In this document: positions 8,476-40,262 of the stretch, one piece after another | How positions within the stretch are numbered: position 1 is the first letter of the stretch | Layout: every line of letters begins with the position of its first letter | Assembly: GCA_018668255.1 (NCBI GenBank) | Contig: JABISZ010000010.1 | Span: 48,724-112,723 of the forward strand | From: Pseudomonadota bacterium | GTDB lineage: Bacteria > Pseudomonadota > Gammaproteobacteria > Ga0077536 | Reading direction: 5' to 3' | Length of the DNA: 64,000 bases | Notes under the pieces: generated by a model | What the model was told of the DNA's origin: nothing | The model's input: only the letters and a program-made list of their open reading frames with translations | Databases searched by the model: none | Position numbers and translations under genes: made by a program

Positions 8476-11139
8476 ATGAAAAACTCATTTAATGCCAGTA
8501 AAGAACTTTCAGTAGGCGAAAAAACCTACCAAATTTTCAGCTGCAAGCGCCTCGCCGATCAGTATCCCATAGATAAATTACCATTTGCTCACAAAATTCT
8601 CTTAGAAAACCTTTTACGTTTCGAGGATGGAGTCAATGTCACCAGAAGTGATATTCAGGCTGTCGCTAATTGGAATCCAACTGCAGAGCCGAGTCAAGAG
8701 ATTGCTTTCACACCGGCTAGAGTTCTAATGCAAGATTTTACCGGAGTACCTTGTGTGGTCGACTTAGCTGCCATGCGAGATGCCATGATAGCCATGGGAG
8801 GGGATCCTAAGAAAATTAACCCTCTGTCACCAGCAGAACTTGTCATTGACCACTCTGTTCAAGTTGATCACTTCGGCGCACAAAGCGCAGCGGAAAAAAA
8901 TGCTAAAATTGAGTTCGATAGGAATAAAGAACGGTATGGTTTTCTTCGATGGGGGCAAAATGCATTCTCTAACTTCTCAGTAGTCCCGCCTGATACTGGC
9001 ATCGTTCACCAAGTCAACCTCGAGTTTTTAGCGAGGACGGTGTTTGAAAACACTGTAAATGGAGTACTTCAAGCATATCCGGATACCGTTGTTGGTACCG
9101 ACTCACACACAACAATGATTAACGGTTTAGGTGTTCTCGGATGGGGTGTTGGAGGCATTGAGGCTGAAGCGGCAATGCTCGGTCAACCGATAACCATGCT
9201 GATCCCGCAGGTAGTGGGCTTCAAACTAGAAGGGAATCTTCCAGAAGGCGCTACTGCGACTGACTTGGTACTAAAGGTTGTAGAAATGCTCAGGCAGAAA
9301 GGAGTAGTTGGGAAGTTTGTAGAATTTTATGGCTCAGGGCTAAGTAGTTTACCTTTAGCTGATCGCGCAACATTAGCAAATATGGCCCCTGAATACGGCG
9401 CTACTTGTGGGCTATTCCCTATCGACATTGAAACTACCGCTTACCTCAAACTCTCGGGGCGAAGTTCAGACCAAGTAGCTTTAGTGGAAGCTTATGCAAA
9501 AGAGACAGGTATGTGGCGCGATGCCTCGAGCCCAGAAGCTACGTACTCTGATTCACTTACACTGAATATGAATTCGATTAAGCCAAGCTTAGCGGGCCCT
9601 AAAAGACCACAAGATAGAATTGACCTCGACTCAGCTCATACTGTCTTCCAAAGAGCTTTGATTGAAGCGACAAAAGATAGAACCTCAGGCGGATCTTCGA
9701 CTACTGACATAAATGGATCGAAAGCTGAAATAAAAGATGGTGCTGTGGTTATTGCAGCCATCACGTCATGTACAAACACGTCAAATCCTTCAGTTATGGT
9801 TGGGGCAGGATTACTTGCTAAAAAAGCCAATGAACTAGGACTAAAAGTACAACCTTGGGTTAAAACAAGCTTAGGGCCCGGCTCTCTAGTTGTAACTGAC
9901 TATCTTAATAAAGCCGGCCTGACAGAGCACTTGAATGCTTTGGGATTTCACACGGTGGGCTATGGTTGTACAACCTGTATTGGTAATTCAGGTCCCATTC
10001 CTGAACCAGTCAGCACCGCAATCAAGGATGGCGATGTAATCGCGTGTTCAGTACTTTCAGGAAACCGGAATTTTGAGGGACGTGTGCACGCTGAAGTGAA
10101 AATGAATTTCCTAGCATCTCCCCCTTTAGTTGTTGCCTATGCCATAGCAGGAAGGATGGATATCGACATCATGACTGCTCCTCTAGGCGAAACACCAGAG
10201 GGAAACCCTGTCTATTTAAAAGACATATGGCCTAGCTCTGCCGAGATCCAGCAGGCTGTTACTTCGACGATCGACTCCGAAATGTTTAAAGATAGTTACG
10301 CGAACGTATTCTCAGGAGACGCGCGATGGGCGGGCATTGATGTTAGTGAATCTAGCCTGTATGCGTGGGACGATAACTCTACTTATGTCAAAAACCCGCC
10401 TTATTTTAAAGATATGCCAAAAAAACCAAAAGAATTAAAACAAATAGAGGGTGCTCGGATTTTACTAAAGCTCGGGGATTCAATAACAACCGACCACATA
10501 TCGCCTGCTGGGAACATAAAAGCCGATAGCCCGGCAGGAAAATACCTAATTGATAACGGAGTAGCATCGAAAGATTTTAATTCTTATGGATCCCGTCGTG
10601 GAAACCATGAAGTCATGATGCGAGGAACGTTCGCTAACATTAGACTGCGAAATCAACTGGCCCCGGGAACTGAGGGTGGCTGGACAAGACACCAACCTAG
10701 CGATACCGAAATGTCAGTTTATGACGCTGCAATGCGATATCAAAAGGAAAACACCCCGCTGATAGTTCTGGGCGGAAAAGAATATGGTACTGGGTCGTCA
10801 CGAGATTGGGCTGCTAAAGGGACTTCCTTACTAGGTGTGAGTGCGGTAATTACCGAAAGTTTCGAAAGAATTCATCGCTCTAATCTAGTAGGAATGGGAG
10901 TACTTCCACTAAACTTTAAGAATGGGCAAAATAGCGAATCTTTAGGATTGACGGGCTTAGAAACCTATACGGTAGAAGGTTTTTCACAGGGCGTTAAAGA
11001 AGTGGTAATCGTCACGGAAGCAAACGACGGGACGATAACTCGATTCCCGTGTGACGTAAGAATTGATACTCCAAAAGAGTGGCAATACTACCAACATGGT
11101 GGCATCTTGCAGTTTGTTTTGCGGGAGCTAGCTGCCTAA
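8476..11139 (+). CDS. acnA: Aconitate hydratase A
   Basis: 887 aa with aconitase family motifs (three Fe-S-ligand Cys regions, swivel domain). Confidence 0.9.
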
Positions 11140-29793: not shown

Positions 29794-30603
29794 TCAAACC
29801 CGGCGTTCATAAACTTGAACAGGAGCTCCTTGCTGCATACTAAGAAGCTGGGAAGCATTTTGCTCAGCACATGCTACTTCTACAACATTAGACGAATTAA
29901 ATAATGCTAAGAAGGTCCCTGGTTTCACGTTACTGTAAGTTCTTTGGAAATTTATTTCATGGCCACCGATGCTTACTACGGGGTCGGAAAACTTTTGAAT
30001 CTCACTCTTTTCAATATTTGTGATTAGGTTCCCGAAATGATCGGTAGTCACAACAACTCCAGACAAAACACCTCCTCTGATTTCAGGATATTCAAGAAGA
30101 GACGGTACGATATTATCTATCAGTAGTCCACAATTTACCTCGGTAAGAACCCTTGATGCTAAAGCTGCAGCAACAGGTGCAAAAACATCTCGACCATGAA
30201 ACGTGTCACTCACAGTAGATAATTGATATTTTTTGAGCAAATCTTCGGTCATTAAGTAGACATTAGCTCCGGTTTTTTCTACAACCTCAGCCAGCAAACC
30301 GTTATCAGGGCCGAGAAAGACATGTCCGTCTCCAAAAGCAACAATTAAACTGCGGTCTGAGCCAACACCCGGATCGACAACGCCCAGATGAACAGTCCCC
30401 GAAGGAAAATAATGATAACAGCGAGCAATCCAAAACCCAGCCTCTGCAGGCCAATGAACGTGTGCTTCATTAGTAAGATCAACGATACGCGCATCTAAAA
30501 ATCTACTATGAATGACTCCTTTCATAGTCCCAACAAAAGGACCTCGGTGACCGAAGTCTGTAGTTAGAGTAATAATCCCATTCGCTTGGAAATCGCTCCG
30601 CAT
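29794..30603 (-). CDS. SAM hydroxide adenosyltransferase / SAM-dependent halogenase superfamily protein (DUF62)
   Basis: 269 aa with DUF62 blocks ITLTTDFG, MKGVI, VDPGVGS, GPDNGLL and TFHGRDVFAP. Confidence 0.75.
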   Translation of the reverse strand: MRSDFQANGIITLTTDFGHRGPFVGTMKGVIHSRFLDARIVDLTNEAHVHWPAEAGFWIARCYHYFPSGTVHLGVVDPGVGSDRSLIVAFGDGHVFLGPDNGLLAEVVEKTGANVYLMTEDLLKKYQLSTVSDTFHGRDVFAPVAAALASRVLTEVNCGLLIDNIVPSLLEYPEIRGGVLSGVVVTTDHFGNLITNIEKSEIQKFSDPVVSIGGHEINFQRTYSNVKPGTFLALFNSSNVVEVACAEQNASQLLSMQQGAPVQVYERRV

Positions 30604-30706
30604 ACTCTCTCCCTTAAGGATGGCGACACAGAAAGATAAAAGCTATGCATGCCTGATTATTTGTAAACTTGAGATAATTTAAAGTAACAGTTATACAATA
30701 ATCACC

Positions 30707-31456
30707 GTGGATAATCCAAAAATAGAAAAAAAGCTTGAAAAAATTTCGTGCCCGATCTGCGCAGGGAACAGTTTCAAACATTTATTTGAGAAAGCCGGTG
30801 AACCCTTTGTTCAGTGCCATAATTGCGAGCTTACACTAATAAATCCTCGGCCTTCTCTAAGCGATATCACAGCAGGCTATGATGCTAGCTATAGTGCGGG
30901 CTATACAAAAAAAGCTACTAAAAAGAAACGCCGGGCATCTCACCGTGTGAAGCGCCTTAAAAAAGAGTACAAGATTTCTGGACGATGGTTAGACGTAGGA
31001 TGTTCTGCTGGATTTGTTGTCGAAGCGGCTGTATGTAATGGATTTCAAGCCTTTGGTGTAGATATTGAAAAAGCGGGAATAGAATACGGCCAAAAAACAT
31101 TGCACCTGGAAAATCTCGCAGAAGGAACGCTTAGTGAGCAGGACTATCCTAGCGCACACTTTCATGCTATTTCTGCCTATGATGTTCTAGAACATGTCCC
31201 TGACTTAAATAACTTTCTAAAAGAACTGAAAAGGATCTTGCATCCTAAGGGAGTTCTAGATCTTGGTACTCCAGACATAGGGCACTGGAGAGTACCTAAA
31301 ATCCTTTCACATTGGAATGAGCTCAAACCCTCAGAACATTTATACTATTTCAATAAAGGAACCTTAAACCAACTGCTAGACAAAAATGAACTACGTATAG
31401 ATAAAGTCAGATGGTCGATAAAGCCAAGTCTTAAGGTGACAATTACTCATCAATAG
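30707..31456 (+). CDS. Class I SAM-dependent methyltransferase with N-terminal zinc ribbon
   Basis: 249 aa. N-terminal CPICAGNSF...CHNCEL zinc-ribbon, MTase motif I LDVGCSAGF. GTG start. Confidence 0.7.
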   Translation: MDNPKIEKKLEKISCPICAGNSFKHLFEKAGEPFVQCHNCELTLINPRPSLSDITAGYDASYSAGYTKKATKKKRRASHRVKRLKKEYKISGRWLDVGCSAGFVVEAAVCNGFQAFGVDIEKAGIEYGQKTLHLENLAEGTLSEQDYPSAHFHAISAYDVLEHVPDLNNFLKELKRILHPKGVLDLGTPDIGHWRVPKILSHWNELKPSEHLYYFNKGTLNQLLDKNELRIDKVRWSIKPSLKVTITHQ

Positions 31457-31468
31457 CCAACTACTTTT

Positions 31469-32269
31469 CTAATCATTTCTCCAAGAAGGTAACTCTTTAA
31501 GTAAAAAGCTATTAATCCCCTCTAAAGCTTCTCTGCTAAGACGTTTCTCTGAATGTCCTGCAATCAGTTTATCCAGTAATTTTCTATTCGTATTTTTGTC
31601 GGACAGTGCCAAAAACCCGTCCTTGCTGACAGCGCTTGTTTTCGGGCCCGTGGATAAAATTTTACAGATGATTTTATCCGCATGCTGGTCTAAATTTCCA
31701 GGCTCGACCAGCTCACTAACTAAACCAATTTCTGAGGCAACTTCTCCCGAAAAATCCTCTCCAGTAAGCGCATAACGTTTAGCGTGACGTATTCCAATAG
31801 CATCGATTAATTGCGGGAAAATAATATTTGCTACCATACCAAAACGCGCCTCACTAATAGCAAAAACTGATGTTGTCTCTGCTAGTACAATATCGCAAGA
31901 TGCCACAATACCGCAGCCGCCTCCCATACATGCTCCCTGCACCAAAGCAATAGTGACTGTCTTCAAATTACGCAGCTGCCAAAAAGTCTCAGCTGTCTTT
32001 TTTGAGACTCTCTGATTTTCAGCAGCACTACAGAGGCTTACCTTCTTCAGCCATTGAATGTCTGCTCCGGCCTGAAAATGACGACCGGCTCCTCTAATCA
32101 AAATTATCCTCACATGACTATCAAGATCTAATTTTTTTATACAATCACTAAACTGATCAAGAAAATCTTCGTTATACGCGTTATTAGAACTGGAACGATT
32201 GAACATTATCGTTGCTACTCCAGATACTGTGATATCAGTTATCGAAACCAAATTACCCATAACGTGCAA
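31469..32269 (-). CDS. Enoyl-CoA hydratase/isomerase (crotonase) family
   Basis: 266 aa with crotonase fold motifs (oxyanion-hole Gly regions). Confidence 0.75.
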   Translation of the reverse strand: MHVMGNLVSITDITVSGVATIMFNRSSSNNAYNEDFLDQFSDCIKKLDLDSHVRIILIRGAGRHFQAGADIQWLKKVSLCSAAENQRVSKKTAETFWQLRNLKTVTIALVQGACMGGGCGIVASCDIVLAETTSVFAISEARFGMVANIIFPQLIDAIGIRHAKRYALTGEDFSGEVASEIGLVSELVEPGNLDQHADKIICKILSTGPKTSAVSKDGFLALSDKNTNRKLLDKLIAGHSEKRLSREALEGINSFLLKELPSWRND

Positions 32270-32277
32270 CTCACTCC

Positions 32278-32916
32278 TTAAGTAGAACCTTTACATAAAC
32301 GGGAAAACCCAGCCGATAAAAATGGAACCATGCGTAAATGTATCTCAGATAAATCGGAGCCACGGCAGGTGTCTCCAGAGAGTAAATCTATGCGACCAGT
32401 CTGTGCAAATGTCATAGTCATAGCACCAAGAAGAAAATGAAAACTCCAATAGACATCCTCCGTCTTAGCAACAGGGAACCTCACTCGTACGCGACGGATA
32501 AACTCAATCGCTACCGGATCGAACTCCGCTGACATGATCTCGCTCGTCCATCGGGGTGAGTTTGCAATCTGAGCGACTACACGAGCATAGTCTCTCCAGC
32601 CCTCACCTCCAAATAAACTTCGCCGAAGAAACGGACCAATGAAAGCCTCTATCAAATCTTCGCTTTCTGCTCTATCAGAAAGCGCGTTCAAAGCTTCCAT
32701 CCTCTCGTTGTTGAGGATTACAGAGCGTCGCTGAATAACAGCGCGAAAAAGTCCTAACTTAGAACCAAAATGATAATTTGGCAGAGCCAATTCTACTCCA
32801 GCAAGCTTAGTAATCATCCTCAAAGACACTCCGTCATAACCGCTTTCGGCAAATAGGGCCTCAGCTGAGTCTAAGATGCGCTGAGGCGTTGAAGTTTTGT
32901 CAGTTTTTTTATTCAC
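32278..32916 (-). CDS. TetR/AcrR family transcriptional regulator
   Basis: 212 aa with an N-terminal HTH typical of TetR. It is divergent from hyuA and has a palindromic operator in the intergenic region. Confidence 0.8.
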   Translation of the reverse strand: MNKKTDKTSTPQRILDSAEALFAESGYDGVSLRMITKLAGVELALPNYHFGSKLGLFRAVIQRRSVILNNERMEALNALSDRAESEDLIEAFIGPFLRRSLFGGEGWRDYARVVAQIANSPRWTSEIMSAEFDPVAIEFIRRVRVRFPVAKTEDVYWSFHFLLGAMTMTFAQTGRIDLLSGDTCRGSDLSEIHLRMVPFLSAGFSRLCKGST

Positions 32917-32938
32917 AGGTGGTTGCTCTTTATTTCTA

Positions 32939-32980
32939 ATTTACGCTATATTTGAACACATGTTCAAATATAGCGTAAAT
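32939..32980. promoter_or_regulatory. Palindromic operator with 20-bp arms and a 2-nt spacer (candidate TetR binding site)
   Basis: ATTTACGCTATATTTGAACA-CA-TGTTCAAATATAGCGTAAAT, checked base by base, is a perfect inverted repeat. It lies between the divergent TetR gene and the TTG start of hyuA (33024). Confidence 0.75.
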
Positions 32981-33023
32981 ACATAATATCCATAGTAGGT
33001 ATCTTTTTAACAGGGGAATAGCG

Positions 33024-35129
33024 TTGAGCTCTTATATTTGCGGTCTAGATATAGGCGGAACTTTTACAGATTGCGTGCTCATAGACGAACATGGCGATCT
33101 TACAATCGCAAAATCACCTTCCACACCATCCGATTTTGCAGTTGGTGTGTTGAATGCTATAGAAAGAGCTGCCGTAAAAATTGGCCTCTCAACCCCGGAT
33201 CTTCTTGACTCAATTAACGTGTTAGCTCACGGAACTACAGTAGGAACTAACACTATAATTCAAAGACGGGGAGCTAAAGTTGGGCTCATTACGACAAAAG
33301 GCCATAACGATGTTATTCATATTATGCGAGGCTCTCGAGGGCTTGCAGGCCAAGATATCAAGTTAATTGTCCACATCCCTGAAAGCAGTAAGCCTAAACC
33401 TCTGATTCCTAAAAGATTGATTCGCGGAGTGTCTGAACGAGTCGACTGCTTTGGAAAAATTGTCGTTGAGTTAAATGAACTAGAAGTAGAAACCGCAATC
33501 AGAGAACTTCAAGATGCGGGATGCGACGCATTAGCCGTCTGCTGTCTCTGGTCTTTTCTCGAACCGAAACATGAGCAAAGGATCAAGGCCATCGCTCATA
33601 AAATAGCTCCAGAAATGTACGTTACGTGCTCTACCGATTTAGCTCCGAAATGGGGTGAGTATGAACGCACTACCGCTGTCGCTCTTAATGCATACATTGG
33701 ACCTATTACTGTCGGGTACATTACTCGCTTAGATAAACAGCTAAAAGAAATGGGTTATAAACCTCCACTGCAGATAACGCATTGTGCTGGAGGGACAATT
33801 ACTGTGCCAAAAGCACAGGAGGCTCCTTTACTAACCCTCGATTCAGGACCTGTATCAGGTGTCACAGGCTCTGTTTTCCTAGGTGGCTTGATGGGCTATC
33901 CCAACGTAATTACCACTGATCTCGGCGGCACCTCCTTTGATGTCGGTGTGATACACAATGGCAGTCCTGTAGTCTCTTATAAAAGCACAGTTAATCAGTA
34001 TGAATATTTTCTACCCAAAGTTGATGTCCAAACATTAGGTACTGGAGGTGGCAGTAAAGTTTGGATAGATCAGACAACAAATTCTCTTCGGGTAGGTCCC
34101 AATAGTGCTGGAGCGGATCCAGGACCGGTATGCTATGGGAAAGGAGGAACTACTCCGACAACGACTGACGCTGATCTTGTTCTAGGCTATCTCGACCCCA
34201 ATAACTTTGCAGCAGGAACGATTAAACTGGACCATAAAGCGGCAACTGAGGCTCTACAAAAGATAGCAGATGAACTCGAAATGACACTTTTTGAGCTTGC
34301 CAGCGGCGTTGCTACTATCGCTGAATTCCAGATGGCAGATCTAATTCGTAAAGTGACCGTACAAAAAGGCCTAGACCCACGAGAATTTGTCGTGTTCGCT
34401 TTTGGTGGCGCAGGTCCTGTACATATGGGCGTCGCTGCACGGGAGCTAGGAGTTGACAAGGTCATAGTCCCACAAGGCGATACTGCGGCGGTCTGGTGCG
34501 CATTTGGAGCAGCCTCCGCAGATATTCTCCATGTTGGAGAACAAGCGAAAATTATTTCATCTCCATTCAACTTAACCGAAATCAATAAGATTCTGAACGG
34601 GTTGTCTTTGAAAGGAAGCCAACAGTTGCAGAGCGATGGTATAGAACAGGCGAAGCATCAGTTTCAATATTCATTGGACATGAGACATCGTGGCCAAATT
34701 AATGAAGTCGAAGTGTTTATAGATAGTGGAATACTCGATGAGAAAGCACTTGAGGCGTTAAGAGAGAAGTTCGTAGCTCGGTACGAGCAACTATACGGCC
34801 GTGGCTCTGCAATGCATGATGCTCGACTAGAAATCGTAACGGCGAGGTGCCGCTCATCTGCTCTATCATTAAAACCTAAACTTAAAGAGTTTTCTTTAAC
34901 ATTAGAGCCTCTCCCCGCGGACGCCAAAACTGGGACCAGGGATATCTATTGGGCTGAAAAACAATCTGTCGAAACAACTCCTATATTTAATGGCTATCTT
35001 TTTAAACCTGGAAACAGCGCTGAAGGGCCTTGCGTTGTCGAAACAGAAACCACGTCGATCGTTGTGCACCCTAAACAGGAAATCAGCATGGACACTTTTA
35101 GAAACTTTGTGATCAACCCCAATACCTGA
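33024..35129 (+). CDS. Hydantoinase/oxoprolinase A-type subunit (HyuA; acetone-carboxylase beta-like)
   Basis: 701 aa, TTG start, N-terminal GLDIGGTFTD ATPase (ASKHA) motif. Confidence 0.85.
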   Translation: MSSYICGLDIGGTFTDCVLIDEHGDLTIAKSPSTPSDFAVGVLNAIERAAVKIGLSTPDLLDSINVLAHGTTVGTNTIIQRRGAKVGLITTKGHNDVIHIMRGSRGLAGQDIKLIVHIPESSKPKPLIPKRLIRGVSERVDCFGKIVVELNELEVETAIRELQDAGCDALAVCCLWSFLEPKHEQRIKAIAHKIAPEMYVTCSTDLAPKWGEYERTTAVALNAYIGPITVGYITRLDKQLKEMGYKPPLQITHCAGGTITVPKAQEAPLLTLDSGPVSGVTGSVFLGGLMGYPNVITTDLGGTSFDVGVIHNGSPVVSYKSTVNQYEYFLPKVDVQTLGTGGGSKVWIDQTTNSLRVGPNSAGADPGPVCYGKGGTTPTTTDADLVLGYLDPNNFAAGTIKLDHKAATEALQKIADELEMTLFELASGVATIAEFQMADLIRKVTVQKGLDPREFVVFAFGGAGPVHMGVAARELGVDKVIVPQGDTAAVWCAFGAASADILHVGEQAKIISSPFNLTEINKILNGLSLKGSQQLQSDGIEQAKHQFQYSLDMRHRGQINEVEVFIDSGILDEKALEALREKFVARYEQLYGRGSAMHDARLEIVTARCRSSALSLKPKLKEFSLTLEPLPADAKTGTRDIYWAEKQSVETTPIFNGYLFKPGNSAEGPCVVETETTSIVVHPKQEISMDTFRNFVINPNT

Positions 35130-35140
35130 GGTTATTTCAG

Positions 35141-37420
35141 ATGCCACGAATAAGCGAAATGACTGACGTAGACTTCAATGGAATTGAAAATCCCTACGTG
35201 CCACCGAAAATCCTGAAAATAGCCTCAAAACTAAGGCTTCATCAAACCTGGGACAAAGAAGTCGACCCGGTAACTTATGAAGTTATCCGTCATAACCTTT
35301 GGCAAATTAATGAAGAGCATGGGGCAACGATACAGCGCCTGTCGGGGTCTCCTGTCGCAATGTACGCTCTCGACTTAAACCCATCCATCCTGACTGAAGA
35401 TGCAGAGTTCGTATACTTTGGCCCTTATATGCAATACATGTCTGGTGTGACAGACACCCAAGTAAAATGGACTCTGGAATACCGAAGTGAGAATCCTGGG
35501 ATAAATGAGGGGGACATGTTTATAGCCAATGATCCGTGGGTAGGGGCGGCTCATCAACAAGATGTGATGCTACTTTGTCCAGTTTTTTGGGAAGGAGAGC
35601 TTTTCTGTTGGATAACAAACTGTCTTCACCAATATGACATCGGAGGGATAACTCCCGGCAGCTTCTGTCCATCTGCGGAATCAGTTTACGAAGAAGGACT
35701 AATGCTTCCACCTCTCAAGATAATTGAAAACTATGAAGTCAGAAAAGATATTGAAGCCGTATATCTAAGGTCGTCCAGAAAGCCTGATTTAGTAGCGTTA
35801 GACTTCCGAGCCCAAATTGCAGGTAACACAACTGCGCGTGATCGAATTTTAGAGCTCATCAAGCGCTATGGAGCAGCCACACTGAAAGGTGTAATGAAAA
35901 GGATTATAGACAACTCGGAAAAATCCTACTTAGATAAAATGTCACGCTTACCTGACGGAGAATGGTCTGATCGAACGTATATAGAGGCTTGCCGCCCGGG
36001 TGACAGACGAACTCATCGGGTCATGTTAGGTCTTCGTAAAGAAGGCAATAAACTTATCTTTAACAATGACGGTTCTGCACCCCAGGAAGGAGCTATGAAT
36101 GCAACTTACTCGGGTTGGCGTGGTTCCGTAATGGTTGCTGTGAATGAATTACTTTGCTGGGATCAGTATTTTGCATGTGGCGGTGCTTTACGGCACATTG
36201 AGTTTGACCCTACGCCGGGAACGCTCAATTGTGCAGACTTCCCATCGTCCGTCTCGACTGCTCCGATACAAGCTATGGAAATTTCACTATATCCCGCCTA
36301 TAACGTCATATCCAAAATGATTTACCCCGATCCGATCATGCGAAAAGACATCATGTGTATCGGCGGCACCAGCCAATGGCCTGCTACTTTATTCAGAGGG
36401 ATCGATCAGTGGGGTGAAAAGTATGGCTATCTACTCATTGATCCTATTGGCGGCGCCATAGGCGCATTTACTATGGCAGATGGTATAAACACTGGTGGAC
36501 AAGCAAGAACGCCTATCTGTCAATTGCCTAATGTGGAACATACGGAACAAAATTTTCCTATCTTGTTCCTTTACCGCAAAGAGCTCAGTGACTCGGGTGG
36601 AGCAGGGAAATACAGAGGCGGACTTTCTGCTGAAAGCTGCTTCATCCCTCATAATACTGAATTCGTTACGCAGGACACTCTTTCTTCTGGCAATGCAATA
36701 CCTACTTCACCTGGCCTGATGGGAGGATACCCATCAACTACTAATGCCTATACATTCGTCAAAGACAGCAATATTTTTGACTGTATGGCGTCGTCACAGA
36801 TGCCAAAGGATACAGACGAATTATTAGGGAATTCCGTAACGTTGCAGCTTCGGGAACAAAACTTCACCCAAGATCCTAAAGATGTATACGCCGTCAGATG
36901 GAGTGGTGGTGGTGGATTCGGTGACCCTTTTGATAGAGCACCAGAGGATATAGAGGATGACTTGGAGTCGCTTGCTATAACCGAAAATTCTGCGGAAACA
37001 CTTTATGGTGCAATCTTAGGCAAAGATGGCCATGTTGATGTTGAAAGGACACGCGAACATAGAGCCAAAATAAGGAAATCTAGAGTTACTGAAATTAAGA
37101 AATCAAATAGGAAGGGTCAGTTGTTATCTGAAAATTCGCACTCAATCAACATTATGCGAGATGACGCCGGCACCTACTGGGCTTGCGCAAAATGTGACTT
37201 CGAATTGGGTGATATCTCAGAGAACTATAAAGAACATTGCGTGACCGAGAATCAAAGCATCGCAGTCTCCAATCCTTTGATTGGCGACGAAGCTAGATTC
37301 ATCGATAACGCGGTTGAATTTAGGCAATTCTATTGCTGCCAGTGCGGCTGCCTTCTAGACAACGAAATCGCAATCGCTGAAGATCCTTTGCTCCACGATT
37401 CAAGGCATCAGCTCAGTTAA
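35141..37420 (+). CDS. Hydantoinase B/oxoprolinase-type subunit (HyuB) fused to a C-terminal Cys4 zinc-ribbon extension
   Basis: 759 aa. The HyuB core ends near GGGGFGDP. The ~110-aa C-terminal tail carries CAKC (residue 682) and CCQCGC (residue 732). Confidence 0.8.
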   Translation: MPRISEMTDVDFNGIENPYVPPKILKIASKLRLHQTWDKEVDPVTYEVIRHNLWQINEEHGATIQRLSGSPVAMYALDLNPSILTEDAEFVYFGPYMQYMSGVTDTQVKWTLEYRSENPGINEGDMFIANDPWVGAAHQQDVMLLCPVFWEGELFCWITNCLHQYDIGGITPGSFCPSAESVYEEGLMLPPLKIIENYEVRKDIEAVYLRSSRKPDLVALDFRAQIAGNTTARDRILELIKRYGAATLKGVMKRIIDNSEKSYLDKMSRLPDGEWSDRTYIEACRPGDRRTHRVMLGLRKEGNKLIFNNDGSAPQEGAMNATYSGWRGSVMVAVNELLCWDQYFACGGALRHIEFDPTPGTLNCADFPSSVSTAPIQAMEISLYPAYNVISKMIYPDPIMRKDIMCIGGTSQWPATLFRGIDQWGEKYGYLLIDPIGGAIGAFTMADGINTGGQARTPICQLPNVEHTEQNFPILFLYRKELSDSGGAGKYRGGLSAESCFIPHNTEFVTQDTLSSGNAIPTSPGLMGGYPSTTNAYTFVKDSNIFDCMASSQMPKDTDELLGNSVTLQLREQNFTQDPKDVYAVRWSGGGGFGDPFDRAPEDIEDDLESLAITENSAETLYGAILGKDGHVDVERTREHRAKIRKSRVTEIKKSNRKGQLLSENSHSINIMRDDAGTYWACAKCDFELGDISENYKEHCVTENQSIAVSNPLIGDEARFIDNAVEFRQFYCCQCGCLLDNEIAIAEDPLLHDSRHQLS

Positions 37421-37422
37421 TG

Positions 37423-37878
37423 CTAGTGCTTGACGCGATACTCATCGTGGCAGCCTTTGCACATCTTTACAGTAACGCCAAATTGTCTCTTCATGGCCGC
37501 CTTGTCTCCTTCACTAGCAACTATGGCCAACTTCTGAGATGCAGATGCCAAATCACTCATTCTTTTTTGAAAGTCAGGCAAGTTCTCCCATAATTCAGGC
37601 CGAGCTTCAGACTTCGCATCCTTCGTAGACACGTCAAAACCCTCAGCCACCATCGGTGCCAACTGCGCTACTCGGTCTGCCAAAAAAGCAAAGCGCTCTT
37701 TATCAAACGGCACCTTCCCTTGGACCATGGCACCCATAGGCCCGATATTCCAACCTAGCGCCATCAATACACCTTGGCGATAATGAACTGCATCATCGGG
37801 TTTGGGCGCGGCTTGTGCTCCTCCCAAAAAAGCTAACAAGACGCATAGAGTTACAACGACGTTCAATACTTTTTTCAC
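37423..37878 (-). CDS. Cytochrome c' / class II cytochrome c
   Basis: 151 aa with a signal peptide and a single CKGCH heme motif near the C-terminus. Confidence 0.8.
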   Translation of the reverse strand: MKKVLNVVVTLCVLLAFLGGAQAAPKPDDAVHYRQGVLMALGWNIGPMGAMVQGKVPFDKERFAFLADRVAQLAPMVAEGFDVSTKDAKSEARPELWENLPDFQKRMSDLASASQKLAIVASEGDKAAMKRQFGVTVKMCKGCHDEYRVKH

Positions 37879-37889
37879 TTACATCCCCT

Positions 37890-38561
37890 TTATAAGTTGA
37901 ATCTAAAATTAACTATTACACAAATAATCGCAATACTCAGTAACAAAGTTGCAAAAGGTAGGAAAAAACCGTGCCGGATCTTACTTGCATTTTTATCTCT
38001 CAAATATTTATAGCCACTCAGCATCGCACCTACTAAGTGCTCGCGCTTCCAAACTCGATAAAAAAATATCGCCAAAACATGGATGATAATCAAAACAGTC
38101 AAATTATTGAAATTCGTATGGTGTACCCACGTCAGCCAATCGCTGGTGAGCTTAGTCACATTGGCATAAAGCGGCCCTTCATTAAACAAGTCGTCATTGG
38201 CAAACAAGCCCGTAGCAAACTGCACAACCAAAAGTAAAAGAAACGCTATGACTACCCAGCCACCAATAGGGTTGTGCGTTAAGTAATGTTCTGGTTGCCT
38301 GATTTTTAGCTCCAAAATAGCACGAACAACTATTCTTGGACCTCGAATAAACTCGGAGAACTTGGCAGACTGTGATCCCCAAACCCCCCAAAACAGACGA
38401 AAAAAAACAAGAATACCAATGCCGTAACCACAAAACATATGGTATTTCATCAATAGACCGCCTTCTCGCGCTGTCCACCAAGCGGACAGAATCAAAACGA
38501 CTAATAACCAATGAAAGCACCTGATCCATAGGTCCCAGACGTAAACTTTCTCACTGCTCAT
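37890..38561 (-). CDS. Cytochrome b561 family membrane protein
   Basis: 223 aa with 4 TM segments carrying conserved His pairs. Operonic with cytochrome c'. Confidence 0.75.
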   Translation of the reverse strand: MSSEKVYVWDLWIRCFHWLLVVLILSAWWTAREGGLLMKYHMFCGYGIGILVFFRLFWGVWGSQSAKFSEFIRGPRIVVRAILELKIRQPEHYLTHNPIGGWVVIAFLLLLVVQFATGLFANDDLFNEGPLYANVTKLTSDWLTWVHHTNFNNLTVLIIIHVLAIFFYRVWKREHLVGAMLSGYKYLRDKNASKIRHGFFLPFATLLLSIAIICVIVNFRFNL

Positions 38562-38738: not shown

Positions 38739-40262
38739 TTGGGGACAATAGTGAAAATCAAAAGACCTACTAGTGAGCAAATTGACTTAATCGCTGAGCA
38801 ATTCGGACTAAATCTTGAATTGGATGATATTGAGTCATTCAAGGCGCTAATGGAGGGGCCAATAGCTTCTTACGAACGGCTAGATGAGCTTTGCGAACCG
38901 AAGCCAGAAGTCAAATATCCTAGAAACCCGGGCTATCGACCTAACGCTGATGAAAATCCGAACAACGCATGGTATTACAAAACATTAATAAAGGGCGCGG
39001 CTCACGGTAAGCTCAGTGGAAAAACCATTGCTATAAAAGACAACGTCTGTGTAGCTGGAGTTCCGATGATGAATGGCTGTTCAGTACTCGAAGGGTATAT
39101 TCCAGATATAGATGCGACAGTGGTAACAAGGATCTTAGATGCGGGGGGTGAAATAGCAGGGAAGTCTGTATGCGAAAACTTATGTTTTTCCGGAGGAAGT
39201 CACACTACTGCCGCGGGACCGGTGACTAACCCTCATAATCCGGAATACACTACCGGTGGTTCTTCAAGCGGAAGTGCAGCGCTGGTTGCATCTGGTGGCG
39301 TTGACATGGCTATTGGCGGAGATCAAGGCGGTTCAATACGTATGCCAGCTAGCTGGTGTGGGGTGTATGGCTTAAAACCTACGCATGGGCTAGTGCCTTA
39401 TACGGGCGCATTTCCGATTGAGATAACCCTTGACCATTTAGGGCCCATAACTAACAACGTAACGGACTGTGCTCTGCTACTCGAAGTTATTGCTGGGGAC
39501 GATGGAATGGATCCGCGACAACGTAATTTAAAAGTAGACAAATATACGGAAGCACTTGTCACTGATATACATGAACTCAAAATTGGCGTTGTGTCTGAAG
39601 GTTTCAATTGGGAAGGTCAATCCGAACAAGATGTGGATACAAACGTGCGTGCTGCGGCTAGTCAACTAGAAAAGCTTGGAGCTCACGTTGAGGAAGTGTC
39701 TATCCCTATGCATAAAGATGGGATCCACATCTGGAATGCAATCGCTATTGAAGGTGCCAATTCCTTGATGATAAAAGGCAATAGCATGGGAACGAATTGG
39801 AAGGGCTATTACAACACTGGGTTGCTCGATTCATTTGCGAGAGGTCGTATCACTAGAGCTGACGATCTGTCAGAAACTACCAAACTGGTAATGTTAATGG
39901 GCCAGTATATGGATGAGCAGTACCATGGTCGCTATTATGCTAAGGCGCAAAATCTTGCCACTGCTCTCAAAGCAGCGTACGACTCAGCTTTTGAAAAATA
40001 CGACCTACTATTGATGCCTACTCAACCAATGAAAGCGACAAAAATACCTGAAAAATCTTGTTCCAGAGAAGATTATGTCGCTCGCGCTTTGGAAATGGTA
40101 AATAATACAGCTCCTTTTGACGTCACCGGACACCCGGCCATAACTATTCCAGTAGGCAAGTCAAAGGGACTCCCTGTAGGTATGATGCTTATCGGGAAAA
40201 GCTTTGATGAGAGTACAATACTAAGAGCAGCTTATACATACGAACAAGCGACAGTAATATAA
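38739..40262 (+). CDS. Amidase (amidase signature family)
   Basis: 507 aa with the [14 protein letters not shown] amidase signature. It is directly upstream of nitrile hydratase. Start is TTG at 38739 or GTG at 38751. Confidence 0.85.

Follow-up and report, generated by a model that had tools for sequence, protein, structure and literature searches.

The central approximately 20 bp of a 42-bp palindrome between a divergent TetR-family gene and hyuA is probably the operator of the adjacent PsrA-like TetR repressor, and the outer arms of the palindrome would then be a lineage-specific extension. This reading comes from comparing the sequence with related loci. The unusual features of the site are limited to the perfect lineage-specific extension and the hypervariable centre; otherwise, it is a fairly ordinary predicted switch. 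The window is the whole stretch of DNA that was analyzed (64,000 nucleotides), and the following features are given in its coordinates.

31469..32269, minus strand: enoyl-CoA hydratase (ECH) gene, 8 nt downstream of tetR and on the same strand
32278..32916, minus strand: gene of a TetR-family regulator of the PsrA/NicR type (tetR; Pfam TetR_N and TetR_C_30), the predicted binder
32923..32952, plus strand: candidate hyuA promoter from a sigma70 PWM (−35 TTGCTC at 32923-32928, 18-nt spacer, −10 TATATT at 32947-32952)
32938..32967, minus strand: candidate tetR promoter (−35 TTGAAC at 32967-32962, which is the hyuA-proximal half-site, 18-nt spacer, −10 TAAATT at 32943-32938)
32939-32958 and 32961-32980, no strand: palindrome arms, 20 nt each, 100% complementary, with 2 nt between them
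32939..32951, no strand: tetR-side outer arm ATTTACGCTATAT, lineage-specific, overlapping the candidate −10 elements of both promoters
32950-32969, no strand: conserved site, the core with its flanking A/T pairs, (A)TTTGAAC-N4-GTTCAAA(T), here ATTTGAAC-ACAT-GTTCAAAT
32952..32967, no strand: conserved core TTGAAC-ACAT-GTTCAA, predicted operator of the adjacent TetR
32958..32961, no strand: central 4 nt ACAT, the N4 spacer of the operator and the predicted hairpin loop, hypervariable among close relatives
32968..32980, no strand: hyuA-side outer arm ATATAGCGTAAAT, lineage-specific, asymmetric to the other flank in the relatives at 84% and 89% TetR identity
33010-32983, minus strand: alternative tetR promoter TTAAAA-16-TATTAT, a PWM prediction
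33024-35129, plus strand: hyuA, TTG start, Hydantoinase_A, in a predicted regulated operon with hyuB
35141-37420, plus strand: hyuB, Hydantoinase_B with an acetone-carboxylase gamma-like C-terminal domain, in the same predicted regulated operon

The palindrome, ATTTACGCTATATTTGAACA-CA-TGTTCAAATATAGCGTAAAT at 32939-32980, was a perfect inverted repeat of 42 bp, and a comparison of the arms bore out the 20-nt arms and 2-nt centre that an earlier note on this DNA had described. The flanks given there (TetR gene on the minus strand, hyuA with a TTG start, and a 107-bp spacer between them, 32917-33023) agreed with the open reading frames and domains. In the 64-kb window, this was the longest and the sole perfect long inverted repeat, the next-ranked ones being 11–21 nt long and 71–93% matched. 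A search of the window with the 19-nt half-site (up to 3 mismatches) found no copies beyond the two arms (expected 0.02). Folded as single-stranded DNA, the palindrome had an energy of −18 kcal/mol (z = −9.3 against shuffled sequences).

For the comparison of loci, one genome per species was scanned with a TetR alignment, which gave 80 loci. A metagenome scan with a single TetR protein as the query gave 9 loci, and intermediate relatives were taken from exact-protein look-ups. The divergent order of tetR and hyuA-hyuB was kept in approximately 37 of the 80 loci (species-level genomes), down to about 55% TetR identity, and TTGAAC-N4-GTTCAA, with 0–2 mismatches and a spacer of exactly 4 nt, was found in 37/37 syntenic spacers; the lineages are related, so these conservation counts are not independent. 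Over 41 distinct sites, the information was located in A-W-TTGAAC-G-N-N-C-GTTCAA-A-W, the half-site positions holding 1.1–2 bits (mostly invariant) and the positions farther out less than about 0.7 bit each. At one mismatch or less, the core was matched 49 times in the 300-nt stretches upstream of tetR (23 kb in all) vs 3 times in the remaining 848 kb of the loci, which is an approximately 600-fold higher density. At the same threshold it was a single site in the 64-kb window; with up to two mismatches, two extra matches appeared (13291 and 49996), both weak and unconvincing, and no further regulon members were visible there. The core also followed the TetR gene into loci without hyuAB, namely L028 and L039 (divergent extradiol dioxygenase and Rieske oxygenase genes) as well as L038 and L043.

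The conserved unit is thus only about 16–20 bp long, contrary to the view in the earlier note that a length of 42 bp is typical of TetR operators. The operator claim of that note is supported for the core, which was present in every syntenic relative and travelled with the TetR gene, but not for the full 42 bp. Loss of the palindrome in syntenic relatives had been named as evidence against the claim, and at 84–89% TetR identity the full 42 bp was missing and the core was kept. The outer 13 nt of each arm lie outside the predicted family-wide operator and form a symmetric extension over putative promoter DNA.

Further operator-like sites were seen in some relatives. One of them, TTATACGATCGTTCAA, was located 18 bp tetR-ward of the core in L009, L017, L031, L032, L035, and L098, and overlapped the core in L024, L027, and L036; on the hyuA-directed strand, its TTATAC half can be read as a −10 box, TATAAT. 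Locus L018 had two extra sites, TTGAACGAACGTGCAA and TTGAACGAACGTACAA (9802-9817 and 9870-9885), between an ECH gene and a second operon with a free-standing acetone-carboxylase gamma subunit first and a HyuA paralogue, which points to a larger regulon in that genome. More distant TetR paralogues, in loci lacking hyuAB (L045, L052, L053, L055, L062, L072, and L075) had a related but distinct variant about 150–200 nt upstream of the gene, TTGAAC-N4-GTTGAA and TTCAAC-N4-GTTGAA in tandem, with a swapped third position.

The TetR protein has an N-terminal HTH and a C-terminal ligand domain (TetR_N, E = 5.5e-11; TetR_C_30, E = 2.7e-32). Its closest solved full-length relative was chain 2FBQ (E = 2.8e-18 alone, 2e-30 with a profile), which we take to be PA3006, the PsrA protein of P. 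aeruginosa. The second-closest were the NicR chains 5FHP/5FGL, which presumably represent NicR2, a repressor of the nicotine pathway in Pseudomonas putida S16 with 6-hydroxy-3-succinoyl-pyridine as its ligand; here the similarity extended over the full length, at low identity. The nearest NCBIfam model was that of PsrA (NF053516, equivalog), with 102.1 bits vs a curated cut-off of 300 bits, and the protein is therefore a relative of PsrA and no orthologue. The recognition-helix residues were invariant over 32 TetR homologues, and the helix was near-identical to that of 2FBQ (AGVELALPNYHFGSK vs AGVNLAAVNYHFGSK).

PsrA is the Pseudomonas TetR-family sensor of long-chain fatty acids and controls genes of fatty-acid beta-oxidation. 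The protein in the window resembles it in the TetR_N and TetR_C_30 architecture with full-length similarity to 2FBQ, in a putative autoregulatory site upstream of its own gene, and in an AAC-N4-GTT geometry (GAAAC-N4-GTTTC or TTCAAAC-N4-GTTTGAA in PsrA, TTGAAC-N4-GTTCAA here). The published PsrA box is C/GAAAC-N2-4-GTTTG/C, the site at P. putida rpoS is TTCAAAC-N4-GTTTGAA, and PsrA occludes, and hence represses, its own promoter (PMC13104628). The literal PsrA consensus was not matched by TTGAAC-N4-GTTCAA, with which it has only AAC-N4-GTT in common, and the half-site here departs from it at the fourth and fifth positions from the centre. The targets are different as well: an ECH gene does follow tetR, but the main predicted target here is a HyuA/HyuB carboxylase- or lactamase-like operon, vs fadBA5 or rpoS for PsrA. 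To our knowledge, no 42-bp perfect palindrome has been reported among PsrA sites. The pair of TetR and its predicted operator is a new, uncharacterised case of the PsrA-like type.

In Tn10, tetR is divergent from tetA, and palindromic operators overlap both promoters, with autoregulation and ligand-induced release as the outcome; tetO is 15 bp long and occurs in two tandem copies. The locus in the window is similar in that the repressor gene is divergent from its target and the putative operator is located over predicted promoters, but the window clade has one core (two in some relatives), placed inside a far longer perfect palindrome. Operators of about this length are also known from QacR (IR1, 28 bp) and TtgR (about 40 bp), both bound by two dimers; they consist of overlapping pseudo-palindromes, each recognised by one dimer. 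The likeness extends to the palindromic organisation and an overall length in the 30–40-bp range, but the outer arms here do not resemble the half-site, and close relatives are without them. A reading of the outer arms as additional half-sites of the QacR/TtgR type was considered and rejected, as they are absent at 84–89% TetR identity and have no TTGAAC likeness in the clade of L004.

The predicted promoter geometry was examined with the sigma70 PWM over distinct spacers. Toward hyuA, a register with TTGnnn at −28 to −30 and TAnnTT at −7 to −4 from the first base of the core was the best match in 28/44 distinct spacers vs 4.5 expected with shuffled flanks, with TTG at −28 to −30 in 31/44; a binomial P value for this register overstates its support because the lineages are related. 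The hyuA start predicted in the window is at about 32959, the centre of the palindrome, and a bound dimer would span −10 to about +9. Toward tetR, TTGAAC-18-TAAATT was the best match (score 10.8), and the scan of distinct spacers found no tetR-ward register common to the family. In every candidate architecture, the core is predicted to lie over promoter elements that both units need. A pair of mirror-image −10 boxes, one on each side of the core, was rejected as a general explanation, as the window clade has no usable tetR-ward −35 in that register. The clade of L004, L005, and L007 does fit such boxes: TGTACA-16-TATATT was the second-ranked tetR-ward match in L005 and L007, and TTGCAC-18-TATATT the second-ranked hyuA-ward match in all three, both of them behind TTGAAC-15-TATGAT.

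From the conservation and position of the core, its linkage to the regulator gene, and its similarity to the PsrA box, we infer the following mode of action. A TetR dimer on the core would cover the −10/+1 region of the hyuA promoter and also the −35 region of the tetR-ECH promoter or the beginning of its transcribed stretch. Because the bound dimer would cover both promoters, both divergent units would be repressed, autoregulation included. A small ligand would then bind the TetR_C_30 domain, and TetR would be released. The pairing of tetR with the ECH gene was kept in many loci; the ECH gene is probably co-transcribed with tetR and hence would be under the same predicted operator.

The central 4 nt varied among the closest relatives. 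In the tetR orientation, the centre was ATGT in the window, GCAC in L001 and L081, and GTAC in L002, L082, and L100-103, at 94–98% overall nucleotide identity. The window and L081 were 98.3% identical over 5.6 kb, yet 4/4 centre positions were different (ATGT vs GCAC, all transitions), with one further difference in the other 103 nt of the spacer and invariant 19-nt arms. Other family members mostly had G and C as the outer two nucleotides of N4. Spacer inversion among the centre variants was not demonstrable from the few haplotypes.

The window-type 42-bp palindrome was limited to a clade with at least 96% TetR identity (the window, L001, L002, L081, L082, and L100-103), across which it was identical apart from the central 4 nt. 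In the relatives at 89% (L083/84, L090-93) and 84% (L094-97) TetR identity, the genes are in the same order, the spacer can be aligned, and the core is perfect, with a flank symmetry of only 3 bp. On the tetR side of the alignment, both of these outgroups have TTTTTTGTTATAT vs ATTTACGCTATAT in the window clade: four clustered substitutions within 13 nt, adjoining approximately 30 almost invariant nucleotides and all toward complementarity, a direction that depends on the ancestral state, for which the tree allows either choice. Over all lineages, flank symmetry was bimodal, most being at the null level and a few complete. In L031, 9 nt of the tetR-side flank were mirrored onto the hyuA side, which was not the case in L033 (91% TetR identity).

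Template switching is described as making imperfect inverted repeats perfect and homogenising their arms (PMC7202029; PMC8604942). The extension was most likely created by such hairpin-templated (quasipalindrome) mutation, and it could have been retained by its overlap with promoter elements or by symmetry itself being favoured. The resemblance to the quasipalindrome hot spots of E. coli and yeast lies in clustered changes that perfect an imperfect inverted repeat, also seen in L031 vs L033. Those hot spots, however, are mutational events at the laboratory or lineage scale, whereas here the product is located on an operator predicted to be functional, and in one superclade it has changed far more slowly than the neutral rate.

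That superclade includes L004, L005, and L007, whose 42-bp palindrome is just as perfect and built from different arms (AAATCATATATAT). Variable positions among them amounted to 0/38 in the arms, 3/4 in the centre, 10/71 (14%) in the other spacer, and about 30% at third codon positions, and in both long-palindrome clades the variation between close relatives was concentrated in the 4 central nucleotides. Their outgroups at 74% TetR identity (L104-106 and L107-108) also have the palindrome, with one compensated double change in the arms of L107/108 (A..T to G..C); the hyuA-side spacer beside the palindrome was unalignable in this comparison. In NJ trees of HyuA and TetR, the superclade was sister to a group joining the window clade with the 89% and 84% clades, which pair with each other, and one ancient origin with one loss is therefore as parsimonious as two independent gains. 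A purely neutral origin of the extension does not fit the sister superclade, given that the sister arms are unchanged or have one compensated pair over 74–100% TetR identity and the surrounding sequence is variable. Neutral drift of the arms, as looked for under the template-switch model, was not found in the sister superclade (0/38 variable). The extension could be explained by selection for symmetry, by a promoter-overlap constraint together with templated homogenisation, or by a structural role.

These observations bear on a rather unlikely alternative, in which the whole 42 bp is functional, either as a cooperative multi-dimer operator or as a symmetric bidirectional promoter-operator whose arms would each provide one promoter with its −10 and spacer, and the symmetry of the outer arms is selected. 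It would account for the perfect palindrome kept in L004/5/7 and L104-108 over 74–100% TetR identity, for arms that stay invariant beside a variable spacer in L004/5/7, and for the compensated change in L107/108, but the 89% and 84% relatives keep the genes, the spacer length, and the core without symmetric arms, as do more than 30 other lineages. Position 20 of the arm was also changed on both sides in the window clade (A..T vs G..C), and the trees permit a single ancient origin followed by one loss; against this, the outer arms of the two long-palindrome clades differ at 6/13 positions, on both sides, and the symmetry in the sister clade is in part a self-complementary (TA)n run. A further point in favour of this alternative is that, in both clades and on both strands, the distal arm has a −10-like hexamer (TATGAT; TAAATT/TAAATA) 15–18 nt away from TTGAAC. 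Other lineages have a second full operator-like site 18 bp away, and multi-dimer occupancy may therefore occur in the family, but the L004 outer arm is unlike the TTGAAC half-site, so it would hold nothing for a further dimer of the same protein to recognise.

A decidedly unlikely variant makes the palindrome an ancient mirror-symmetric control element of a low-GC marine clade, seeded by the operator and maintaining itself via compensatory changes. It would act as a bidirectional promoter-operator with full symmetry, or else as a cruciform switch that responds to supercoiling, and the hypervariable centre would record hairpin or cruciform extrusion in vivo (loop deamination or template switching). 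If this were true, 6/13 outer positions would have changed on both sides between the clades, plus one change per clade.

A role as a nucleic-acid structure, either a DNA cruciform extruded by the negative supercoiling that divergent transcription causes or an RNA hairpin in the tetR or hyuA 5' leader that affects stability or translation, is very unlikely. The predicted hairpin is strong, and there is one compensatory stem change, but the palindrome is only 16–22 bp long in most lineages and has no T-run for a terminator. The confinement of close-relative variation to the 4 loop nucleotides in both long-palindrome clades is what a hairpin would lead one to expect, but the same positions are simply the operator spacer, which is under no constraint. 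Transcription from the candidate upstream tetR promoter, TTAAAA-16-TATTAT, would include most of the palindrome; on the other side, the conserved hyuA register would start transcription at the palindrome centre, and the hyuA mRNA would therefore hold one arm only. In an Rfam scan of the palindrome, there were only sub-threshold generic miRNA hairpins (15–28 bits vs gathering scores of 60–211), the best match having 28 bits vs a gathering score of 70. A known RNA family and an intrinsic terminator were accordingly rejected, with no Rfam match at the gathering score and no terminator at the palindrome.

It is very unlikely that the palindrome is the site of another regulator, or a repeated or mobile element inserted in the spacer: the link between site and TetR does come from comparison, but the motif travels with the TetR gene into hyuAB-less loci, resembles the operator of the closest characterised TetR subfamily, and has a fixed place in the syntenic spacer in approximately 40 lineages, and a repeat or mobile element is rejected because the sequence is unique in the window and its syntenic position fixed.

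The preferred reading, a core operator with a lineage-specific extension, offers a defined candidate operator that can be put to the test, TTGAAC-N4-GTTCAA, together with the regulon predicted for a PsrA-like subfamily of TetR proteins; this subfamily is uncharacterised and occurs widely in uncultured Gammaproteobacteria of marine and fresh waters. The predicted target is an uncharacterised two-subunit member of the acetone/acetophenone-carboxylase/caprolactamase family, and it is plausible that the identity of the inducer could point to the substrate of HyuA/HyuB. The repeated growth of the operator to a perfect 42-bp palindrome, its arms frozen and its centre hypervariable, offers a clean natural case for setting template switching against selection for symmetry. 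Neither the operator finding nor the palindrome case overturns current understanding.

HyuA/HyuB represents the three-subunit carboxylase family in a fused form encoded by two genes. Residues 671-755 of HyuB (about 37151-37405) matched the acetone-carboxylase gamma subunit (PF08882, E = 1.2e-9), and the best NCBIfam matches were CapA, ApcC, and ApcD, all far under the cut-offs. A literature search for TetR regulators of hydantoinase, caprolactamase, or acetone-carboxylase operons returned nothing relevant, and an Arctic acetone-carboxylase preprint mentioned no regulator.

Cytochrome c' and cytochrome b561 genes (opposite strand) and then an amidase-family gene are located 3' of hyuB (37423-38561 and 38739-40262), with no operator-like site near any of the three. 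In the MAG contig of L102 (1-2818), the sequence that begins 75 nt inside hyuA and runs past tetR was 99.9% identical to L100, and the DNA upstream of it was unrelated to L100 (SDR, luciferase-like, and transporter fragments). The contig is either a chimeric assembly or a rearrangement truncating hyuA, and its breakpoint is 118 nt away from the palindrome. A SAM hydroxide adenosyltransferase gene (SAM_HAT_N/C) was found near the TetR gene in the fetched close relatives L090, L094, L098, and L100, and it adjoins the TetR gene in L028 (6831-7637) and L039 (5283-6086), where Rieske/extradiol dioxygenase genes replace hyuAB. In the window clade, the ECH gene and a methyltransferase gene are placed between the SAM_HAT gene and tetR (29794-32916 in the window).
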